A program made the position numbers and the translations under genes. 7,543 nt of DNA from the IMG/VR virus record IMGVR_UViG_2706794685_000002. One strand, given 5' to 3'. This document shows, piece by piece, positions 1 to 7,543 of the stretch (positions are counted from its first letter, which is position 1; every line of letters starts with the position of its first letter). This stretch comes from a virus. Taxonomy: Duplodnaviria > Heunggongvirae > Uroviricota > Caudoviricetes. The notes below the pieces were generated by a model that saw only the letters and a list, made by a program, of their open reading frames with translations, did no database searches and was not told the origin of the DNA.

Positions 1-76
1 TTTCTGGTGTGAGAACCTTAAGGAAACAACATGTTGGGTGGAGCGGACAATCCAAATGGCGAATTACCGTCTTATA

Positions 77-403
77 TCACTGGCGCTGACACTTCATCAC
101 CTCCGGACGTAAATCACCATCCTTTGGTGCATTCAGAAACGCGTTCAGTGTCCCCGGTGCATCAGTCGGTGCCACATCAATATCCCCGACACGGGTTGGC
201 TGCCAGCCGTTACAGTGAAGCGCAACCTCGTAATACCCCGGCTCAGCCTCAATCACATAAGCACCGTTATTGTCCGTCACGCAAGTGGCAACAACGTGTG
301 CCACAACGGTCGGACTGGTTCTTCTGGCCCGCAGTTCAATCGCACAATTTACGACAGGTTTACCCGCCCCATCTTTCAGTACACCTGAAATCTTTACTGC
401 CAT
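77..403 (-). pseudogene. stf: Side tail fibre (Stf) N-terminal fragment, truncated remnant
   Basis: Minus-strand ORF 77..445; the internal Met at 401-403 begins MAVKISGVLKDG..., which I recognise as the lambda Stf N-terminus, and GTLNAFL / RPEV also match. A GGGGTG Shine-Dalgarno-like sequence precedes this ATG, whereas the track start at 445 has none. The ORF stops after about 109 aa, and the in-frame sequence past the stop (1..76) no longer looks like Stf. Confidence 0.5.
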
Positions 404-414
404 ATTCACCCCAC

Positions 415-439
415 AAAAAGCCCGCCTGAACCAGCGGGC
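415..439 (-). terminator. Putative rho-independent terminator downstream of lom
   Basis: Perfect 6-bp all-GC stem gcccgc (420-425) / gcgggc (434-439) with an 8-nt loop, adjacent to aaaaa at 415-419, which is a T-tract on the minus-strand transcript. It sits 28 nt past the lom stop codon. Confidence 0.5.
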
Positions 440-466
440 AGTCATAACACTGTGTTACCTGGCTAA

Positions 467-1066
467 TCAGAACTTATAACCGACACCCACGATGAAACCG
501 TCAGTGCGCCAGTCACCACTGCCGGAACCTTCATAAGCAAGGTCAATGGCCACGGATTCGGTCGGGTTAAACTGCACGCCAGCCCCCCACGCCAGAGACG
601 TGTTGCTGTGGCGACCGCCATCACTTCCGGTCAGCACATCGTGCGTTTTCCCCTTGTTGTCAGTTACGCGGAGATAATCCCCGGAGAAGGTCGACACACG
701 GCTGTAAGCCACGCCCGCCATCGCATACGCGCTGAACCATTCATTCACGCGCACAGACGGCCCCGCCATCACGCTGAACCAGCGGTTACGCACGGAATCC
801 TCATGCCAGCGGGTATCGCTGTAATGCGTTTTTTGCTCATCTTCAGCGTTGGCATAACTGAATGACGTAATCAGCCCCAGCGTGTCCGTAAACTCATAAC
901 GGTATTTCACGTTAATGCCCTTCAGGTCATCGCTGCCTGGCATATCAGTATGGGTCTGAAGATACCCGGCGCTCAGCGTGGACTGATGTTCAGACGCCCA
1001 TGCAGGCGCACCGGATACGGCCAGACAGATGGCTGCGGACAAAATGGCTGCACAAACTTTACGCAT
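467..1066 (-). CDS. lom: Lom, Ail/Lom/PagC-family outer-membrane beta-barrel protein (phage moron)
   Basis: 199-aa ORF with an ATG at 1064-1066 and a GAGAGG Shine-Dalgarno upstream. N-terminal signal peptide MRKVCAAILSAAICLAVSGAPAWA. The C-terminus ...AYEGSGSGDWRTDGFIVGVGYKF matches the lambda Lom C-terminus and ends in an aromatic residue, as outer-membrane barrels do. Position immediately after J is the lambda arrangement. Confidence 0.9.
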   Translation of the reverse strand: MRKVCAAILSAAICLAVSGAPAWASEHQSTLSAGYLQTHTDMPGSDDLKGINVKYRYEFTDTLGLITSFSYANAEDEQKTHYSDTRWHEDSVRNRWFSVMAGPSVRVNEWFSAYAMAGVAYSRVSTFSGDYLRVTDNKGKTHDVLTGSDGGRHSNTSLAWGAGVQFNPTESVAIDLAYEGSGSGDWRTDGFIVGVGYKF

Positions 1067-1087
1067 AATTACCTCTCGCTTTTCTGC

Positions 1088-1114
1088 AATAAAAAAGGCA
1101 CCATTTCTGGTGCC
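1088..1114 (-). terminator. Putative rho-independent terminator between J and lom
   Basis: Stem ggcacc (1097-1102) / ggtgcc (1109-1114), loop atttct, adjacent to aataaaaaa at 1088-1096, which reads as a T-tract on the minus-strand RNA. It lies between the J stop (1134) and the lom Shine-Dalgarno. Confidence 0.5.
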
Positions 1115-1133
1115 CGTATCTGGGTTATAAAAT

Positions 1134-4100
1134 TCAGCTAATCGTGATGCCTGCAGTGGCTTTCTTCATCACCACAACCAGCAAATCGCTGATACTTGCT
1201 GTGGGATACCAGCCATTTACCAGCCATGCCGATACAGAAAACTCCAGCGTCATGTGACCGTGACCGGCAGGCATATCAATAACACCCGTATATATCAGCG
1301 TATTATCCAGGGTCGTTCGGTTATAAATTTCAGCACCGTTTTTCTTCACTATCAGGCGGCATGACGAATAAATATTGTTATTCTTCCGCTCATGTTTAGC
1401 ACCGCGAAACGCCACCGCGGGAATAACAATTTGCCGATCAAACGGCTGATCGTCATAAACCCTGACGGTAATGGTCCCTGATGGCCACCTCTCCGGTGCC
1501 CGGGAGTCCCGTGGGAAAGGTTTGCCCACTGTTTTAACGAGATCGCCTTCAATCTGGTTCGCGGACAATTTTCCCAGAACCCGACAGTTCTTATTAATCG
1601 TGACGTTGTTGAGCGTCCCGGAGTTCGCGTTCACGTTACCGCTGATATCGGCATTTTTCGCCGTCAGCCGTCCGCCAGGTGTCAGGGAAAATGCCGGAGG
1701 ATTACCGCCGCTGGTAATGGTCGGAGCCGTCAGGCATTTCAGGAACACGTCGTTCATGAATATCTGATCGCCCTGACCAACAAACATCGGCTTTGTGTTG
1801 CCATTCGCAGGATTAATCATCGCAATCCTGTCTGCCGCCAGCAGCACCTGACTCTGCATTCCTGCTGGCGTATTCTCAATACCGGCACCGATACCCGCAA
1901 TATAAAGGCGTCCGTCCTTCATCTGTTGCAGCTTCACAGCCCACATGCTGTTCAGGTTATTATTTGTATCAACCTGAACTTTCTGTATCTGCTGGATTGC
2001 AGCACTCTGATTTTCCAGTTTTTTATTGACGGTTTGCGTGATTTCATTGCTGACATTCGTAATGGACGTCCTGATTTCAGTCAGGTCCGGCGCAAGCTGA
2101 CCGTTATCAATCTGCGTCCACAACTCCTTGCCGAGATGCGTTTTATTGATCAACCCTTTATAAAAATTCAGATAACCTTCTGCATCATCGCTCGCCCGAC
2201 CGATGGCCTCCACAAATGCCGATTTGCCAACGGTGTTCACACTGCGAACGTAAAAATAATAATCATGGCCCGGCCTGATATTGATACTGGCGGCTATCCA
2301 GTACAGCGCCGTGCCAAGATAGCGGGCGCTGGTTTCAACCTGCCTGATATCCGCAATCCGCTTTTCCGAAAACCAGAACTCAAACTGCACCGTCGGGTCA
2401 TATACAGCCAGTTTCGGGACCGCCGTTATCTGAAAATACCCCGGTATCAGTTCAATAGTGACAGGCGCTGCCGGTGCCGCAATCCGGAACGATACCGACG
2501 CCGGATCGCCCTGCTGCCCCCGGGCATTTACCGCCCGGACTGTCAGACTGTAATTCCCCAGCGCCAGCTGCCTGAAGCGGTATGTGGTTTCCGTCGTCCT
2601 GGCTGTGCTGACCAGCCGCTCACTGCCGTCGTCCGCTGCCACGGTCAGGCGAAGCAGGAAGCTCACACCCTTCACCACCTTCGGCGTGTCCCATCGCGCC
2701 AGCACCTGATATTCCCCGCTGTCTGCGGTGACTTCGGCGGTCAGATGCTGCACCGCTGGCGGCGTGACACCATTCACCGTGCCGCGCCGGTCACCGTCAA
2801 AGTGTGCCCCGTTATCCACGATGGCCTCTTTTTCCGGCACATGCTGCACGGCGGTGATGGCATACGTGCCGTCGTCGTTCTCACGGATACTCACGCAGCG
2901 GAACAGACGCTGGCGCAGCGTCGGCAGCTTCAGCCCCCACACGCTGTATTCTGCAACGCCGTCAGGAACCCGGCTCACTTTCACCTTCACGCCGTCGGTG
3001 ACGGACTGGACCTCCACGCTGACCGGATTGCCACTTCCGTCAACCAGGCTTATCAGCGTGGTACCGGAGGACGGCAGCGTGATTTCACGGTCGAGCGTCA
3101 GCGTCCGGGTCTGGCTGTTCACCGCCAGTACGCGACCACCGGTGCTGATACCGGCATAATCATCATCGCAGATTTCAATGACATCACCCGGTACATGGCG
3201 AAGCCCTTCTGCGCCCACGCTGAAGTCCACGGTCTGCGTTTCCAGCAGTTCCGTTTTAATCAGCCACAGCCCGGCTCGGTGTGCCTGCCCCCGGCTGGTA
3301 CAGCCAAAGGCATCCATCTTCGTGACATTACGACCGTAACGGGCAATGGCCTGCGTATCCTCCACAAGCTCTGTCGCCGTCTCCCAGCCGTTATCTGGGT
3401 CAATCCAGTTCACCTCAACGGCATTATGGCGGTCCTTCAGGGCGCTGAAGCTGTAGCGGAACGGCGCGCCATCGTCCGGCATCACCACATTACTGCGGTT
3501 ATAGGTCCACACCTTATCCGACGGTCGGTCCTGCACGAACGTCAGCATCTGTCCGTTCCATACCGGCATACAGCGCATCGCCGAGCAGAAATCACTGAGA
3601 ACATCCCACGCCTTACGCTGTGTGGTCAGGTAAGAGTTACAGGTGATGCGCGGCTCCGTGCCGCCAAATCCGTCCGTCACTGACTGGTCGCAGTACTGGC
3701 CGATGACATACAGCGCCCATTTGTCCACATCTGCCGCACCAAGACGTTTCCCCATGCCGTAGCGCGGATGAGTGAGCATGTCCCACAGACACCAGGCCAT
3801 GTTGTTGCTGTATGCTGGCTTAAGCGTTCCGTCCCAGATACCGCTGTATTGCCGCGTCTGCGGGTTATAGTTCGACGGCACCTGCAGAATGCGCCCGCGA
3901 AGATGATAATTGCGACTCACCTGCTGGTTACCGAACTGCTCTGAATCCACCTGCACGCCGACCAGCGCCGTGTTCGGGTAGCACTGTTTCACATCGATGA
4001 TTTCGGTGTACGACGACCAGAGCGTTTTGTTCTGCAGCTGGTCTGTGGTGCTGTCCGGTGTCATCCTGCGCATCCGGANNNNNNNNNNNNNNNNNNNNNN

Positions 4101-4694
4101 NNNNNNNNNNNNNNNNNNNNNNNNNNNNNNNNNNNNNNNNNNNNNNNNNNNNNNNNNNNNNNNNNNNNNNNNNNNNNNNNNNNNNNNNNNNNNNNNNNNN
4201 NNNNNNNNNNNNNNNNNNNNNNNNNNNNNNNNNNNNNNNNNNNNNNNNNNNNNNNNNNNNNNNNNNNNNNNNNNNNNNNNNNNNNNNNNNNNNNNNNNNN
4301 NNNNNNNNNNNNNNNNNNNNNNNNNNNNNNNNNNNNNNNNNNNNNNNNNNNNNNNNNNNNNNNNNNNNNNNNNNNNNNNNNNNNNNNNNNNNNNNNNNNN
4401 NNNNNNNNNTTTCACTTCCGTACCCAGCACCGTCTCGGAGCCGGAGGATTCAAAACCCTCCGGCGGTGTCTGCTCCTGCTCACCTGCACGGAACACCACC
4501 GTAACACCGGAAAAGTTTGTCTTCCCCTCGCTGTCCAGGACCGGCGTACCGTTCAGCAGCACGCTTTTTAATCCATCCACCGGACCGTCAACCGGCCCTT
4601 CGCTGATGGCATCAATCACACTCAGCAACTGCGTGGATTTCAGGTTGTCCTTCGCTTCGCGCGGGGTATGCCCCTTACTGCTGCCTTTACCCAT
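1134..4694 (-). CDS. J: Host specificity protein J (tail tip / central tail fibre), interrupted by an assembly gap
   Basis: N-terminus [34 protein letters not shown]... matches lambda J. The segment after the gap (…[30 protein letters not shown]…) is J-like and a fibronectin-III-like stretch is visible. A 60-bp I-J spacer matches lambda. The 1186-codon length is read through 111 X codons, so the true length is unknown. Confidence 0.88.
4079..4409. other. Run of 331 N (assembly or scaffold gap) inside J
   Basis: Uninterrupted n characters from 4079 to 4409 in the supplied sequence. Confidence 0.99.
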
Positions 4695-4716
4695 TCCTCA
4701 CGCTCCATAAACGACA

Positions 4717-4736
4717 AAACCGCCCGCAGGCGGTTT
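4717..4736 (-). promoter_or_regulatory. GC-rich hairpin in the I-J spacer (possible attenuator or RNA stability element)
   Basis: aaaccgcc (4717-4724) / ggcggttt (4729-4736) with loop cgca. On the minus-strand RNA the GC core is followed by a U-rich run (uuuugucguuua) just upstream of the J ribosome-binding site. Confidence 0.3.
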
Positions 4737-4754
4737 CACATAAAACATTTTGCA

Positions 4755-5396
4755 TCAGCGACCAATCACCACAACCTGACCACCATCCCCTTCGTCTGCC
4801 GTGCTGATCTCCTGAGAAACCACACGTGACCCCACGCGCATTTCACCGTACAGAACGGGCAGAACATTGCCCTGGGCAACCATGTTATCCAGTGACGAGA
4901 AATACGTGTTCTGCTTACCGTTATCCGTTGTCTGTGTACGGGGAGTTCTGGCTTTCGGTGCCAGCATCTGTGCAACACCGCCAAGCGTCATACTGGCACC
5001 GAGAGAAAACAGCAGATTACTCGCCATAATTCCTACCCCCGGCATCCATATAGCAACCGCCATAACAGCCGCCCCCAGCACCGCCTGAAACACACCGCCA
5101 CTTTTAGCTCCCACCAGACGCGGTACTATGTGGATCACTGCACCATTTGCCAGCGGCTCATTAAGACGGGCAGACAATTCGGTTTCACCTGCATCACGCC
5201 CGGCAATGCGCACCTGATACCAGCCGTCACTCAGTTTCTGACGAAACGCCGGGAGCTGTGTGGCCAGTGCCCGGATGGCTTCAGCCCCCGTTTTCACACG
5301 AAGGTCGATGCGGCGACCAAATCGTTGTAAATCCCCGTAAAGGCAGATGCGCGCCATGCCCGGTGACGCCAGAGGGAGTGTGTGCGTCGCTGCCAT
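4755..5396 (-). CDS. I: Tail tip assembly protein I
   Basis: 213-aa ORF beginning MAATHTLPLASPGMARICLYGDLQRFGRRIDLRVKTGAEAIRALATQLPAFRQKLSDGWYQVRIAGRD..., matching lambda gpI. It overlaps the 3' end of K by 103 nt, as in lambda. Confidence 0.9.
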   Translation of the reverse strand: MAATHTLPLASPGMARICLYGDLQRFGRRIDLRVKTGAEAIRALATQLPAFRQKLSDGWYQVRIAGRDAGETELSARLNEPLANGAVIHIVPRLVGAKSGGVFQAVLGAAVMAVAIWMPGVGIMASNLLFSLGASMTLGGVAQMLAPKARTPRTQTTDNGKQNTYFSSLDNMVAQGNVLPVLYGEMRVGSRVVSQEISTADEGDGGQVVVIGR

Positions 5397-6037
5397 TTGT
5401 CGGTGTACCTCTCTCGTTTGCTCAGTTGTTCAGGAATATGGTGCAGCAGCCCGCCGTCACCGCAGTAAATGGCGGCATGATTCGGCACCGATGAACCAAA
5501 ACAGCACAGCAGCACATCGCCCGGCTGTGCCTCTGTCAGTGCGACACGGTAAAAACCCGTCACCTCCATATTGTCAAGATAGAGATTCTGACCGTTACGC
5601 CACCAGTCATCCCCGCGATGAAAATCCGGCATCTCAATCCCTGCCAGATGATAAGCATCCCGGAACAGCGTGTAACAGTCCGTCACCCCGTGCTCAAAGC
5701 GCCGCCCGGTGAGATGCGGCACACAGCGGAACTTGTGAATCGCCCCCCGGCAGACCAGCCACCACGGCAAATCACTCTGCACCTGCAGCCGCCGGTCAGC
5801 CTCACTCAGCCAGGGCAGACCACCGGGATGACTGTGGACCAGCGCCACAATCTCACCCTGCATTTGTGCCCGCAGCCAGTCCTCCGGAGCCATCCGGAAC
5901 CGTTCCTCCGGCTCACCGGAGATATTCTCGCTGGGAAGATACCTGTCTCCCTCCGGCGTTCTTACCACGAAGCCACACGACTCCGCTGGCGCACATCGCC
6001 GGGCGTGCGCCAGAATCGCTGATTCTGTCTGTGTCAT
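5294..6037 (-). CDS. K: Tail tip assembly protein K, long form with JAB/MPN (JAMM) and NlpC/P60 domains
   Basis: ATG at 6035-6037, 4 nt after the L stop, gives 247 aa starting MTQTESAILAHARRC.... A JAMM motif HSHPGGLPWLSEAD (HxHx7Sx2D) is visible with an upstream ESCGFVV glutamate; a Cys (DCYTLF) and downstream His residues fit NlpC/P60. The classical 199-aa lambda K start corresponds to the internal Met at 5891-5893 (MAPEDWL...), which has a GGAGG upstream. The track ORF up to 6301 is a GTG-initiated extension overlapping L. Confidence 0.85.
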   Translation of the reverse strand: MTQTESAILAHARRCAPAESCGFVVRTPEGDRYLPSENISGEPEERFRMAPEDWLRAQMQGEIVALVHSHPGGLPWLSEADRRLQVQSDLPWWLVCRGAIHKFRCVPHLTGRRFEHGVTDCYTLFRDAYHLAGIEMPDFHRGDDWWRNGQNLYLDNMEVTGFYRVALTEAQPGDVLLCCFGSSVPNHAAIYCGDGGLLHHIPEQLSKRERYTDKWQRRTHSLWRHRAWRASAFTGIYNDLVAASTFV

Positions 6038-6041
6038 GGAT

Positions 6042-6740
6042 TTACTGAGAAAGTTTATTGATGGAAAGGAAACCGCCGAAATTACCGGTATTGTTGCGCA
6101 ACTCACACCCGCGCATACACTTGCTGCATTTGTCCTTCCGGATATCCGTCGTTGGTTTGTCGAACTCGTCAGCCACTGCCCTGCCCGTGTAACCACACTC
6201 ATCAGAACGGTAAGTCCACATACAGGTATTCGCCAGCATGATACGCCCCGGGAAAACCGCGCCATCCGTCTCCGTTGGTGTGGCCAGCACAAAAGAGGCA
6301 CTGACCGCGCTCAGTTCGCTGCACTGCTCGATGCGCCAGCGGCTGATCACCTCCTGTTCCGGATCGGCGTCGCTGTTTCCGTTGACGAAGTTCACCGCAT
6401 CCAGAAAACGGGCGTAAACCTTACGCCTGACCACCGTTCCGCCGACCAGACTCTGCAGGTCTTCCGCCATCCCGGTGACCATTCCGTGCAGGTTAGAAAC
6501 CGTCAGTGTCGGACGGGCAGCACTGCCCTTGCCGTTCAGTTCAAATCCCGTCCCCTGAATGGGGTATGCCTGATACTGCCGCCCCTGCCAGGTAACCGGC
6601 TCACCTTTTTCGTTCTGCTCATTACAGAAAAAATAACGTTCACCACCGACCTCTGTCAGATCGATTTCCCAGAGCACCACCTGGGCTGACTGAGTGAGGC
6701 GTGTCGTCTCATGATGTGTTTCCTGTGGAATATCCTGCAT
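6042..6740 (-). CDS. L: Minor tail protein L
   Basis: 232-aa ORF, the same length as lambda gpL, starting MQDIPQET.... Five cysteines cluster in the C-terminal part, consistent with the Fe-S-binding domain reported for gpL. Synteny M-L-K. Confidence 0.9.
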   Translation of the reverse strand: MQDIPQETHHETTRLTQSAQVVLWEIDLTEVGGERYFFCNEQNEKGEPVTWQGRQYQAYPIQGTGFELNGKGSAARPTLTVSNLHGMVTGMAEDLQSLVGGTVVRRKVYARFLDAVNFVNGNSDADPEQEVISRWRIEQCSELSAVSASFVLATPTETDGAVFPGRIMLANTCMWTYRSDECGYTGRAVADEFDKPTTDIRKDKCSKCMRGCELRNNTGNFGGFLSINKLSQ

Positions 6741-6749
6741 CAGAGCCTC

Positions 6750-7079
6750 CTATGCCACGACCTGTTCAAAATCTGCCGTTATGGTTACCCACAACGCCCC
6801 CACGCTTGCCGACCATTTACGACAAACCACCCTGATCGGCTTCCAGTCATAAGGTGGCGTCCACTGAAATGCGCGGACGCCACCGTGCCGTTCCAGAAAG
6901 GCTTTTAAAAATGGGTGTTCACCTTTACGAACACGTATCTTCACGCTGTAAGTCGACAACTGGTTATTCAGTCCCGCCGCACGACGCTGTTCATAACCAT
7001 CGCCCAGCTTCACTGTCACCACTTTCGGCTCTGATACCACATTCATATCCGGGCGCACTTTCCAGTGAAACGTCTCCAT
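6750..7079 (-). CDS. M: Minor tail protein M
   Basis: 109-aa ORF, the same length as lambda gpM. Its ATG overlaps the H stop codon (TAATG on the minus strand). Synteny H-M-L. Confidence 0.88.
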   Translation of the reverse strand: METFHWKVRPDMNVVSEPKVVTVKLGDGYEQRRAAGLNNQLSTYSVKIRVRKGEHPFLKAFLERHGGVRAFQWTPPYDWKPIRVVCRKWSASVGALWVTITADFEQVVA

Positions 7080-7418
7080 TACCGGTATGCTCCACTTAAC
7101 CGGCCACCATCACGGGCCTGCTGTTGCATAAAGTCCGCGGCCGCTTTTTTCCCGAGGTCATAAACCACCTTCAGGGCAGCCGGACCTATCTGCCCGTTCG
7201 TGCCATCGTTATTGATCTCAATGTTGTACTGCGGGGCAAACATCACCATGCCTGAACCACCAGTATCCGCCACACCCCCCAGCTTACCATCAGCACCGCG
7301 ACGCAGTGGCAGAATGGCTTCAGGTCCCGCTTCCCCCATCACACCCGCGCCTTTTGCAAAAGCAAAAAACGTCGGACGGTTAACCACCGTGCCACTGTAG
7401 CGACTCAAATCAGCAGAC
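7079..7418 (-). pseudogene. H: Tape measure protein H, C-terminal fragment truncated by IS insertion
   Basis: Minus-strand frame ends ...QQQARDGGRLSGAYR at a stop overlapping the M start, which is the H position in lambda. Phage-derived sequence ends at 7418/7419, where IS3-like terminal sequence begins. The track ORF start at 7444 is a GTG lying inside the IS end. Confidence 0.7.
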
Positions 7419-7543
7419 TGAGGTAGCCTGAGTTTAACGGACACTCCTTCCTGAAATAGAATGGCATCAGAAGGAGCTAATAATGAGCAGAAAAACCCAA
7501 CGTTACTCTAAAGAGTTCAAAGCCGAAGCTGTCAGAACGGTTC
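7419..7543 (+). mobile_element. IS3-family insertion sequence, left end (IS600-like), partial
   Basis: Begins with TG (7419-7420). GGACAC occupies positions 21-26 from the end, as in the IS3 left inverted repeat. The orfA ATG lies 65 nt inside, preceded by AAGGAG. The element continues beyond the window. Confidence 0.7.
7483..7543 (+). CDS. IS3-family transposase OrfA, N-terminal part (partial, runs off the window)
   Basis: ATG at 7483 with AAGGAG 7 nt upstream. Translation MSRKTQRYSKEFKAEAVRTV carries the (F/Y)SxEFKxEAV helix-turn-helix N-terminal signature of IS3-family OrfA; I recall this exact start from IS600. Confidence 0.7.
   Translation, partial: MSRKTQRYSKEFKAEAVRTV

Follow-up and report, generated by a model that had tools for sequence, protein, structure and literature searches.

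The window analysed here, a stretch of 7,543 nucleotides held in IMG/VR as a viral contig, carries on its minus strand the tail-tip genes of a lambdoid phage. They comprise M, encoding a minor tail protein of 109 aa (6750–7079; Pfam Phage_min_tail 1–108/108, E = 6e-39), L, encoding a second minor tail protein of 232 aa (6042–6740; Phage_tail_L 1–206/206, E = 8e-97), K, encoding a 247-aa tail protein with JAB and NlpC/P60 Pfam domains (5294–6037), the tail assembly gene I (4755–5396; Lambda_tail_I, E = 8e-24), which the assemblies call as 200 aa (4755–5357), the tail-tip gene J (1134–4694) and lom, which encodes an intact Ail/Lom outer-membrane beta-barrel of 199 aa (467–1066; Ail_Lom 1–199/199, E = 4e-129). 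The reading frames of M, L, K, I and lom are uninterrupted, and their Pfam matches are full-length. Regarding J, it contains a run of 331 N (4079–4409) under which the real sequence, as read in Shigella sonnei Ss046, is 250 bases long, so that the length of the window ORF (1186 aa) is inflated; the Ss046 gene (3480 nt, 1159 aa) is intact and has no internal stop. An earlier interpretation of the window from its letters alone (the sequence-only reading) had described M, L, K, I, J and lom as uninterrupted apart from the sequencing gap, which is borne out, and as an intact tail-tip block, which holds for M to lom but not for the tail-fibre gene at the other end, cut by an IS21 element.

Directly upstream of M lies the 3' remnant of the tape-measure gene H (7079–7418, minus strand), whose stop (7079–7081) overlaps the M start (ATGA). 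Since no Pfam match was found in this remnant, its identity was taken from DNA and tblastn comparisons. The encoded protein is 97.3% identical to the tape-measure C-terminus of mEp460-like lambdoid phages (tblastn), and in a megablast search of 5,426 complete E. coli genomes the stretch 7000–7420/7421 is 97–99.8% identical to genes annotated 'phage tail tape measure protein'. This homology stops at query position 421/422, corresponding to window 7420/7421, and includes two bases shared by chance, as the adjoining IS600 element begins TG and intact H goes on TGG. Comparison with intact H therefore places the break at 7418/7419, where ...CAGCAGAC is followed by TGGTAAAC in intact H and by TGAGGTAG in the window. 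What is left amounts to 112 full codons (7082–7417) plus one base and the stop, close to the roughly 113 codons proposed by the sequence-only reading, which had also set the end of H at 7418 and the start of an IS3-like left end at 7419, correctly to the base. With 112 codons, the remnant is not a full-length H bearing the TMP_2 and Tape_meas_lam_C domains; an intact H homologue in another S. sonnei prophage has 853 aa and both Pfam domains, and in the close relatives L014 and L001 the gene spans ~3.0 kb and is annotated as frameshifted. About 90% of H is missing at this locus.

IS600 is a well-known Shigella insertion sequence of the IS3 family, which transposes by a copy-out/paste-in route and generates a 3-bp target duplication. 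Its left end occupies 7419–7543 (plus strand), and the window terminates inside the element. More than 3,000 records of E. coli and 140 plasmids of Shigella contain these bases at 125/125 identity (E = 4e-58), in elements labelled 'IS3-like element IS600 family transposase' or 'IS600 ORF1', the latter including Shigella flexneri pCP301/pWR100; the left end is thus the same on the Shigella invasion plasmids and on EIEC/E. coli chromosomes as in the window. We delimited the element in Ss046 as 1264 bp, TGAGG...CCTCA, and then mapped it on loci L004–L013; the window bases correspond to its positions 1–125. The canonical IS600 end TGAGGTAGCC begins at 7419, and the left inverted repeat TGAGGTAGCCTGAGTTTAACGGACA is followed by a leader with a GAAGGAG ribosome-binding site and by orfA (MSRKTQRYSKEFKAEAVRTV), which opens at the ATG at 7483 on the plus strand, its direction leading away from the phage genes on the minus strand, as the sequence-only reading had it. 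The terminal repeats are imperfect with TG...CA ends: the left repeat, TGAGGTAGCCTGAGTTTAACGGACACT, is the only one in the window, the right repeat, ...AGTGTCCGCTATTGCCAGTACACCTCA, was taken from the full copies of the Ss046 locus, and 19/27 positions agree when the two are compared by eye. These full copies encode either a 100-aa orfA product (HTH_Tnp_1) and a 272-aa orfB product (HTH_21/rve) or a 385-aa fusion, and RefSeq labels IS600 'programmed frameshift', the window itself spanning just 20 orfA codons. Scanning the IS region for promoters and terminators gave counts not above those of shuffled sequences. IS600 is among five insertion sequences that have undergone expansion in Shigella, and recent activity is highest in S. 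sonnei (PMC7373316).

At the opposite edge, positions 1–91 (minus strand) form the IS21 terminus upstream of istA, which reads leftwards out of the window. The Ss046 stretch holding these bases is 99% identical to loci annotated 'IS21-like element IS21 family transposase istA'. Aligned base by base, the sequence agrees with plasmid pPK8217-MCR1 as far as ...GGCGCTGACA, ending at window 91, and differs from it thereafter; prophage homology to E. coli begins at 92. The truncated gene is stf, of which an N-terminal fragment persists as a 122-aa ORF (77–445, minus strand) matching the Pfam phage_tail_N profile at 1–104/134 (E = 1.5e-36), its last codons and stop lying within the IS21 end. The tail-fibre gene is cut after ~104–118 codons, and intact relatives have ~470 aa. 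IS ends flank the window on both sides, with both transposase genes pointing outwards; as a unique island between two repeat families, the window is a place where short-read assemblies break at both ends. Further along in Ss046 (L009 17374–20366), an IS600 flanked by a clean 3-bp duplication (AAC) interrupts the IS21 istA gene, and one more IS600, of opposite orientation, lies beyond the split istA, an instance of IS nested in IS at the prophage edge.

The origin of the window could be established by sequence comparison. Its 7,212 determined bases (4078 + 3134; window 1–4078 and 4410–7543) are 100% identical to the chromosome of S. sonnei Ss046 (CP000038.1, locus L009), as well as to loci L005 and L013, and four more S. 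sonnei assemblies spanning the junction are at least 99.9% identical to it. The seven assemblies crossing the junction are thus Ss046, verified as finished, L004, L005, L006, L008, L011 and L013. Accession CP000038.1 is given as S. sonnei Ss046 in Table 1 of PMC5447701, which cites Yang et al. 2005 for the genome. The Ss046 locus has the same sequence as the window, including the H::IS600 and IS21::stf junctions, and differs from it in the N-run of J alone (331 N vs 250 real bases).

The break creates a chimeric H/IS600 ORF of 121 aa, with a GTG start at 7444 inside the IS600 end. In the protein collection it exactly matches 'hypothetical protein SSON_1768 [Shigella sonnei Ss046]', UniProt Q3Z1A8 'tail length tape measure protein', and it is present on ~440 contigs; the first ~9 codons of Q3Z1A8 come from the IS600 terminal repeat. 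Both the locus and the junction are thus already known, being catalogued as SSON_1768 and public since the Ss046 genome. The H::IS600 junction also occurs in two IMG/VR viral contigs, both of which terminate in IS. It is absent from complete E. coli genomes, none of the 5,426 covering at least 80% of query 7000–7543 by megablast. An exact 41-mer across the junction had no match in GTDB species representatives, a scan that is uninformative, presumably because Shigella has no species entry of its own among these representatives.

Beyond position 7543, we infer the structure of the source assembly from the identical junctions of other S. sonnei genomes, and it would be as follows. In Ss046, L005, L006, L008, L011 and L013, the IS600 copy adjoining H consists of positions 1 to 479–482 only, and a second IS600 of the same orientation starts directly after this stump. 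The second copy is full-length in L006, L008 and L011, L013 ends within it, and in Ss046 and L005 an internal deletion (795–969) splits its orfB; the stump and the second copy lie head-to-tail at L009 8463–10026 in Ss046. In L004 (GCA_965230885.1, 9772–10026) the stump has just 255 bp and its distal flank is unchanged, which reflects either an extra 224-bp deletion or an assembly difference. Whereas a full IS600 has 1264 bp, TG...CA ends, orfA (HTH_Tnp_1), orfB (rve) and 3-bp duplications, the junction copy is a stump of 255–482 bp with neither orfB nor a right end in the assemblies crossing the junction, with no definable target duplication and with a second IS600 attached head-to-tail.

On its right, the second copy borders the phage tRNA cluster/Q side in six of the seven assemblies: its right end abuts CACTCTATCC..., and within 200 bp lies a four-gene phage tRNA cluster (L009 7970–8280; a CAT-anticodon tRNA of Met/Ile2 type, Arg-TCT, Thr-TGT and Gly-TCC), located just downstream of the antiterminator gene Q and next to the IS600 right end. 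Past the tRNAs come a DUF1133-type Q, the YbcO and DUF1367 nin-region genes, two IS1, another IS600 and an integrase. Altogether, 20 kb of Ss046 hold four IS600 copies, one IS600 fragment, two IS1 and one IS21. The exception is L011 (GCA_900485255.1, 3716–8286), in which the right end of the second IS600 adjoins a truncated cse1 next to cas3, which shows that the second IS600 took part in further IS–IS recombination in some strains and that the distal structure differs between strains. These cse1/cas3 genes belong to a type I-E CRISPR-Cas system downstream of cysJIH, and the L011 structure implies an IS600-mediated rearrangement that also disrupted the Cascade operon. The draft S. sonnei scaffolds L007, L010 and L012 were set aside, as their joins run through N and duplicated tail blocks and look like scaffolding artefacts; they link the junction to other lambdoid tail blocks via a single N or short N runs. 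S. sonnei holds several near-identical tail modules, one of them with the intact 853-aa H, that confuse assemblers.

The extent of the loss is seen by comparison with the closest nearly intact relative, the prophage of E. coli FDAARGOS_944 (L014, 4357122–4404351), with 97.7% DNA identity over window 92–7420. In this relative, 16.9 kb separate the tRNAs from the junction point, including 1.26 kb of its own IS600, and hold the genes for holin, lysozyme, Rz, terminase, portal, protease-capsid, connectors, tail tube and G/T as well as the other ~2.6 kb of its ~3.0-kb frameshifted H. When these 16.9 kb were compared by BLAST with the seven S. sonnei loci, over 10 kb either side of the junction, IS600 matches alone were obtained: ~16 kb of lysis, packaging, head and tail-shaft genes and ~90% of H are missing within this distance. 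The missing segment could in principle sit elsewhere in the chromosome via an inversion. The L014 prophage sits between ybhB/bio and an ipaH effector gene and has several frameshifted genes, and its host, labelled E. coli, looks EIEC/Shigella-like. Such EIEC-like prophages and the mEp460-type phages share with the window the gene order H-M-L-K-I-J-lom-stf; their tape-measure gene has its full length of ~2.6–3.0 kb, and genes for the tail shaft, head, packaging and lysis are present, whereas the S. sonnei remnant lacks these and is IS-truncated at both ends.

In Ss046, the integrase, nin genes, Q, tRNAs and tail-tip block are kept, and the genes for lysis, terminase, portal, capsid, head-tail connectors, tail tube (V) and chaperones (G/T) as well as most of H are absent, as in a defective lambdoid prophage. 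The window is thus very probably a piece of the S. sonnei chromosome, namely the tail-tip end of a dead lambdoid prophage that is bounded by IS on both sides and has had its late genes deleted. With the late genes and most of H missing within 10 kb at all seven loci, the proposal of a defective prophage unable to make a functional tail is upheld, and no tail or virion can come from this locus. Truncation of H by an IS3-family element was right insofar as IS600 ends H; it is not a plain insertion, given the stump, the second IS600 and the ~16-kb deletion.

Why M, L, K, I, J and lom have stayed intact was raised in the sequence-only reading as a choice between maintenance for lom and recent inactivation. 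Relative to L014, dN/dS is 0.24 for M, 0.32 for L, 0.10 for K and 0.31 for lom, values which mostly tell how far phages that were once functional have diverged and are powerless for the branch after inactivation. For the H remnant the value was discarded, H being frameshifted in L014, with 5 stops in the extracted sequence. Because the M-lom block is invariant among several S. sonnei genomes, it provides no post-inactivation signal to read. The S. sonnei clone arose no more than a few centuries ago. These data do not distinguish selection on lom from recent inactivation, and recency is a sufficient explanation: the block is most simply intact because the clone is young and IS-driven loss far outpaces decay by point mutation.

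Selection on the tail-tip block, acting on lom, an outer-membrane protein that prophages express, or on J and the tail-fibre stub, kept as a reservoir with which incoming lambdoid phages could recombine, is by comparison unlikely. It would agree with all six genes being open, with M, L, K and lom having dN/dS below 1 when compared with the closest intact relative, and with the deletion having brought the block to ~2.2 kb from Q and the tRNAs, downstream of them and transcribed in their direction; according to work cited in PMC7819885, recombination of defective prophages with other prophages can also take place in E. coli O157. However, lom is preserved no better than structural genes that are useless without a tail, the 100% identity among S. 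sonnei genomes leaves too little time for decay, and IS21 has destroyed the tail-fibre gene adjoining lom. A more elaborate version, which we consider quite improbable, is that the IS deletion, by fusing the tail-tip/lom block to the Q-tRNA region (with two antisense IS600 in between), created something that could be retained as an expressed unit, either for lom as a surface factor or for a tip complex of J-I-L-K-M and the H C-terminus, or as a recombination donor reshaping the host range of incoming lambdoid (e.g., Stx) phages.

Simple IS600 insertions show 3-bp duplications, namely AAC for copy d, inside IS21, and TCC for the copy of L014, located between the genes for lysis and terminase and oriented like those at H. 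At H, the duplication sought by the sequence-only reading is not definable: as the stump has no right end, the GAC on its left has no partner, and the flanks of the second copy are unequal (AAG vs CAC), which indicates that this copy is not at its original insertion site on at least one side. A simple IS600 insertion, after which H and the tail and head genes would resume 1264 bp rightwards and from which excision or recombination could restore the phage, is highly improbable. The window, ending 125 bp into the repeat, would by itself be compatible with it, and the draft scaffold L007 does have a full-length IS600 at the junction; but the join in L007 passes through an N immediately behind the IS and looks like a scaffolding artefact, and Ss046 and the six other, gap-free assemblies (L004, L005, L006, L008, L011 and L013) show a stump, a second copy and then tRNAs/Q or cse1, with no H, tail or head DNA within 10 kb. 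The remainder of H and the head genes, to be looked for beyond the element according to the sequence-only reading, were not found within 10 kb: H does not resume past the IS in any of the seven assemblies. The reciprocal junction (IS600 right end, NNN and the next 14 H bases) was likewise absent from IMG/VR, JGI metagenomes and GTDB representatives, a negative that is weak because Shigella chromosomes are poorly represented in all three. Finally, an assembly artefact, arising from the mistaken joining of an IS600 read to a prophage contig, is scarcely credible: the repeats at both window ends and the wrongly sized N-gap point to a short-read draft, but the same junction is found in the finished Ss046 genome, in several large-contig assemblies and in two independent IMG/VR contigs, on ~440 contigs in total.

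For the IS-bounded, deleted prophage favoured here, the most economical succession of events would be the following. An IS600 would first have landed in H, 112 codons before its stop, and a second IS600 may then have inserted into the first near position 480. A deletion would have followed, extending from the right end of the second copy to the Q-proximal region, either through homologous recombination with a further same-orientation IS600 located between Q and the packaging genes, a route for which L014 offers support in carrying such a partner, or through an IS-promoted adjacent deletion. On the left side, IS21 cut the tail-fibre gene. The order of these events and the mechanism of the deletion are unrecoverable from present-day sequence.

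IS-driven prophage decay and rearrangement are well documented in Shigella (PMC7373316; PMC7819885). In S. dysenteriae type 1, the Stx prophage, where IS600 adjoins stx, is likewise lambdoid, made defective by IS, among them IS600, fixed in the chromosome and clone-wide (PMC7819885; PMC7373316). In contrast with that prophage, the S. sonnei remnant has no toxin cargo that we could see and has kept the tail tip and lom rather than Q-stx-lysis. The locus described here is hence an ordinary case of mobile elements eroding a prophage, one of hundreds of S. sonnei IS junctions. For databases, it means that the 121-aa 'tape measure protein' is an IS-phage chimera and that viral-contig catalogues naming this fragment a 'virus' list a non-inducible remnant. 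For Shigella, it is an example of how the expansion of IS600 and IS21 erodes prophages and breaks short-read assemblies.
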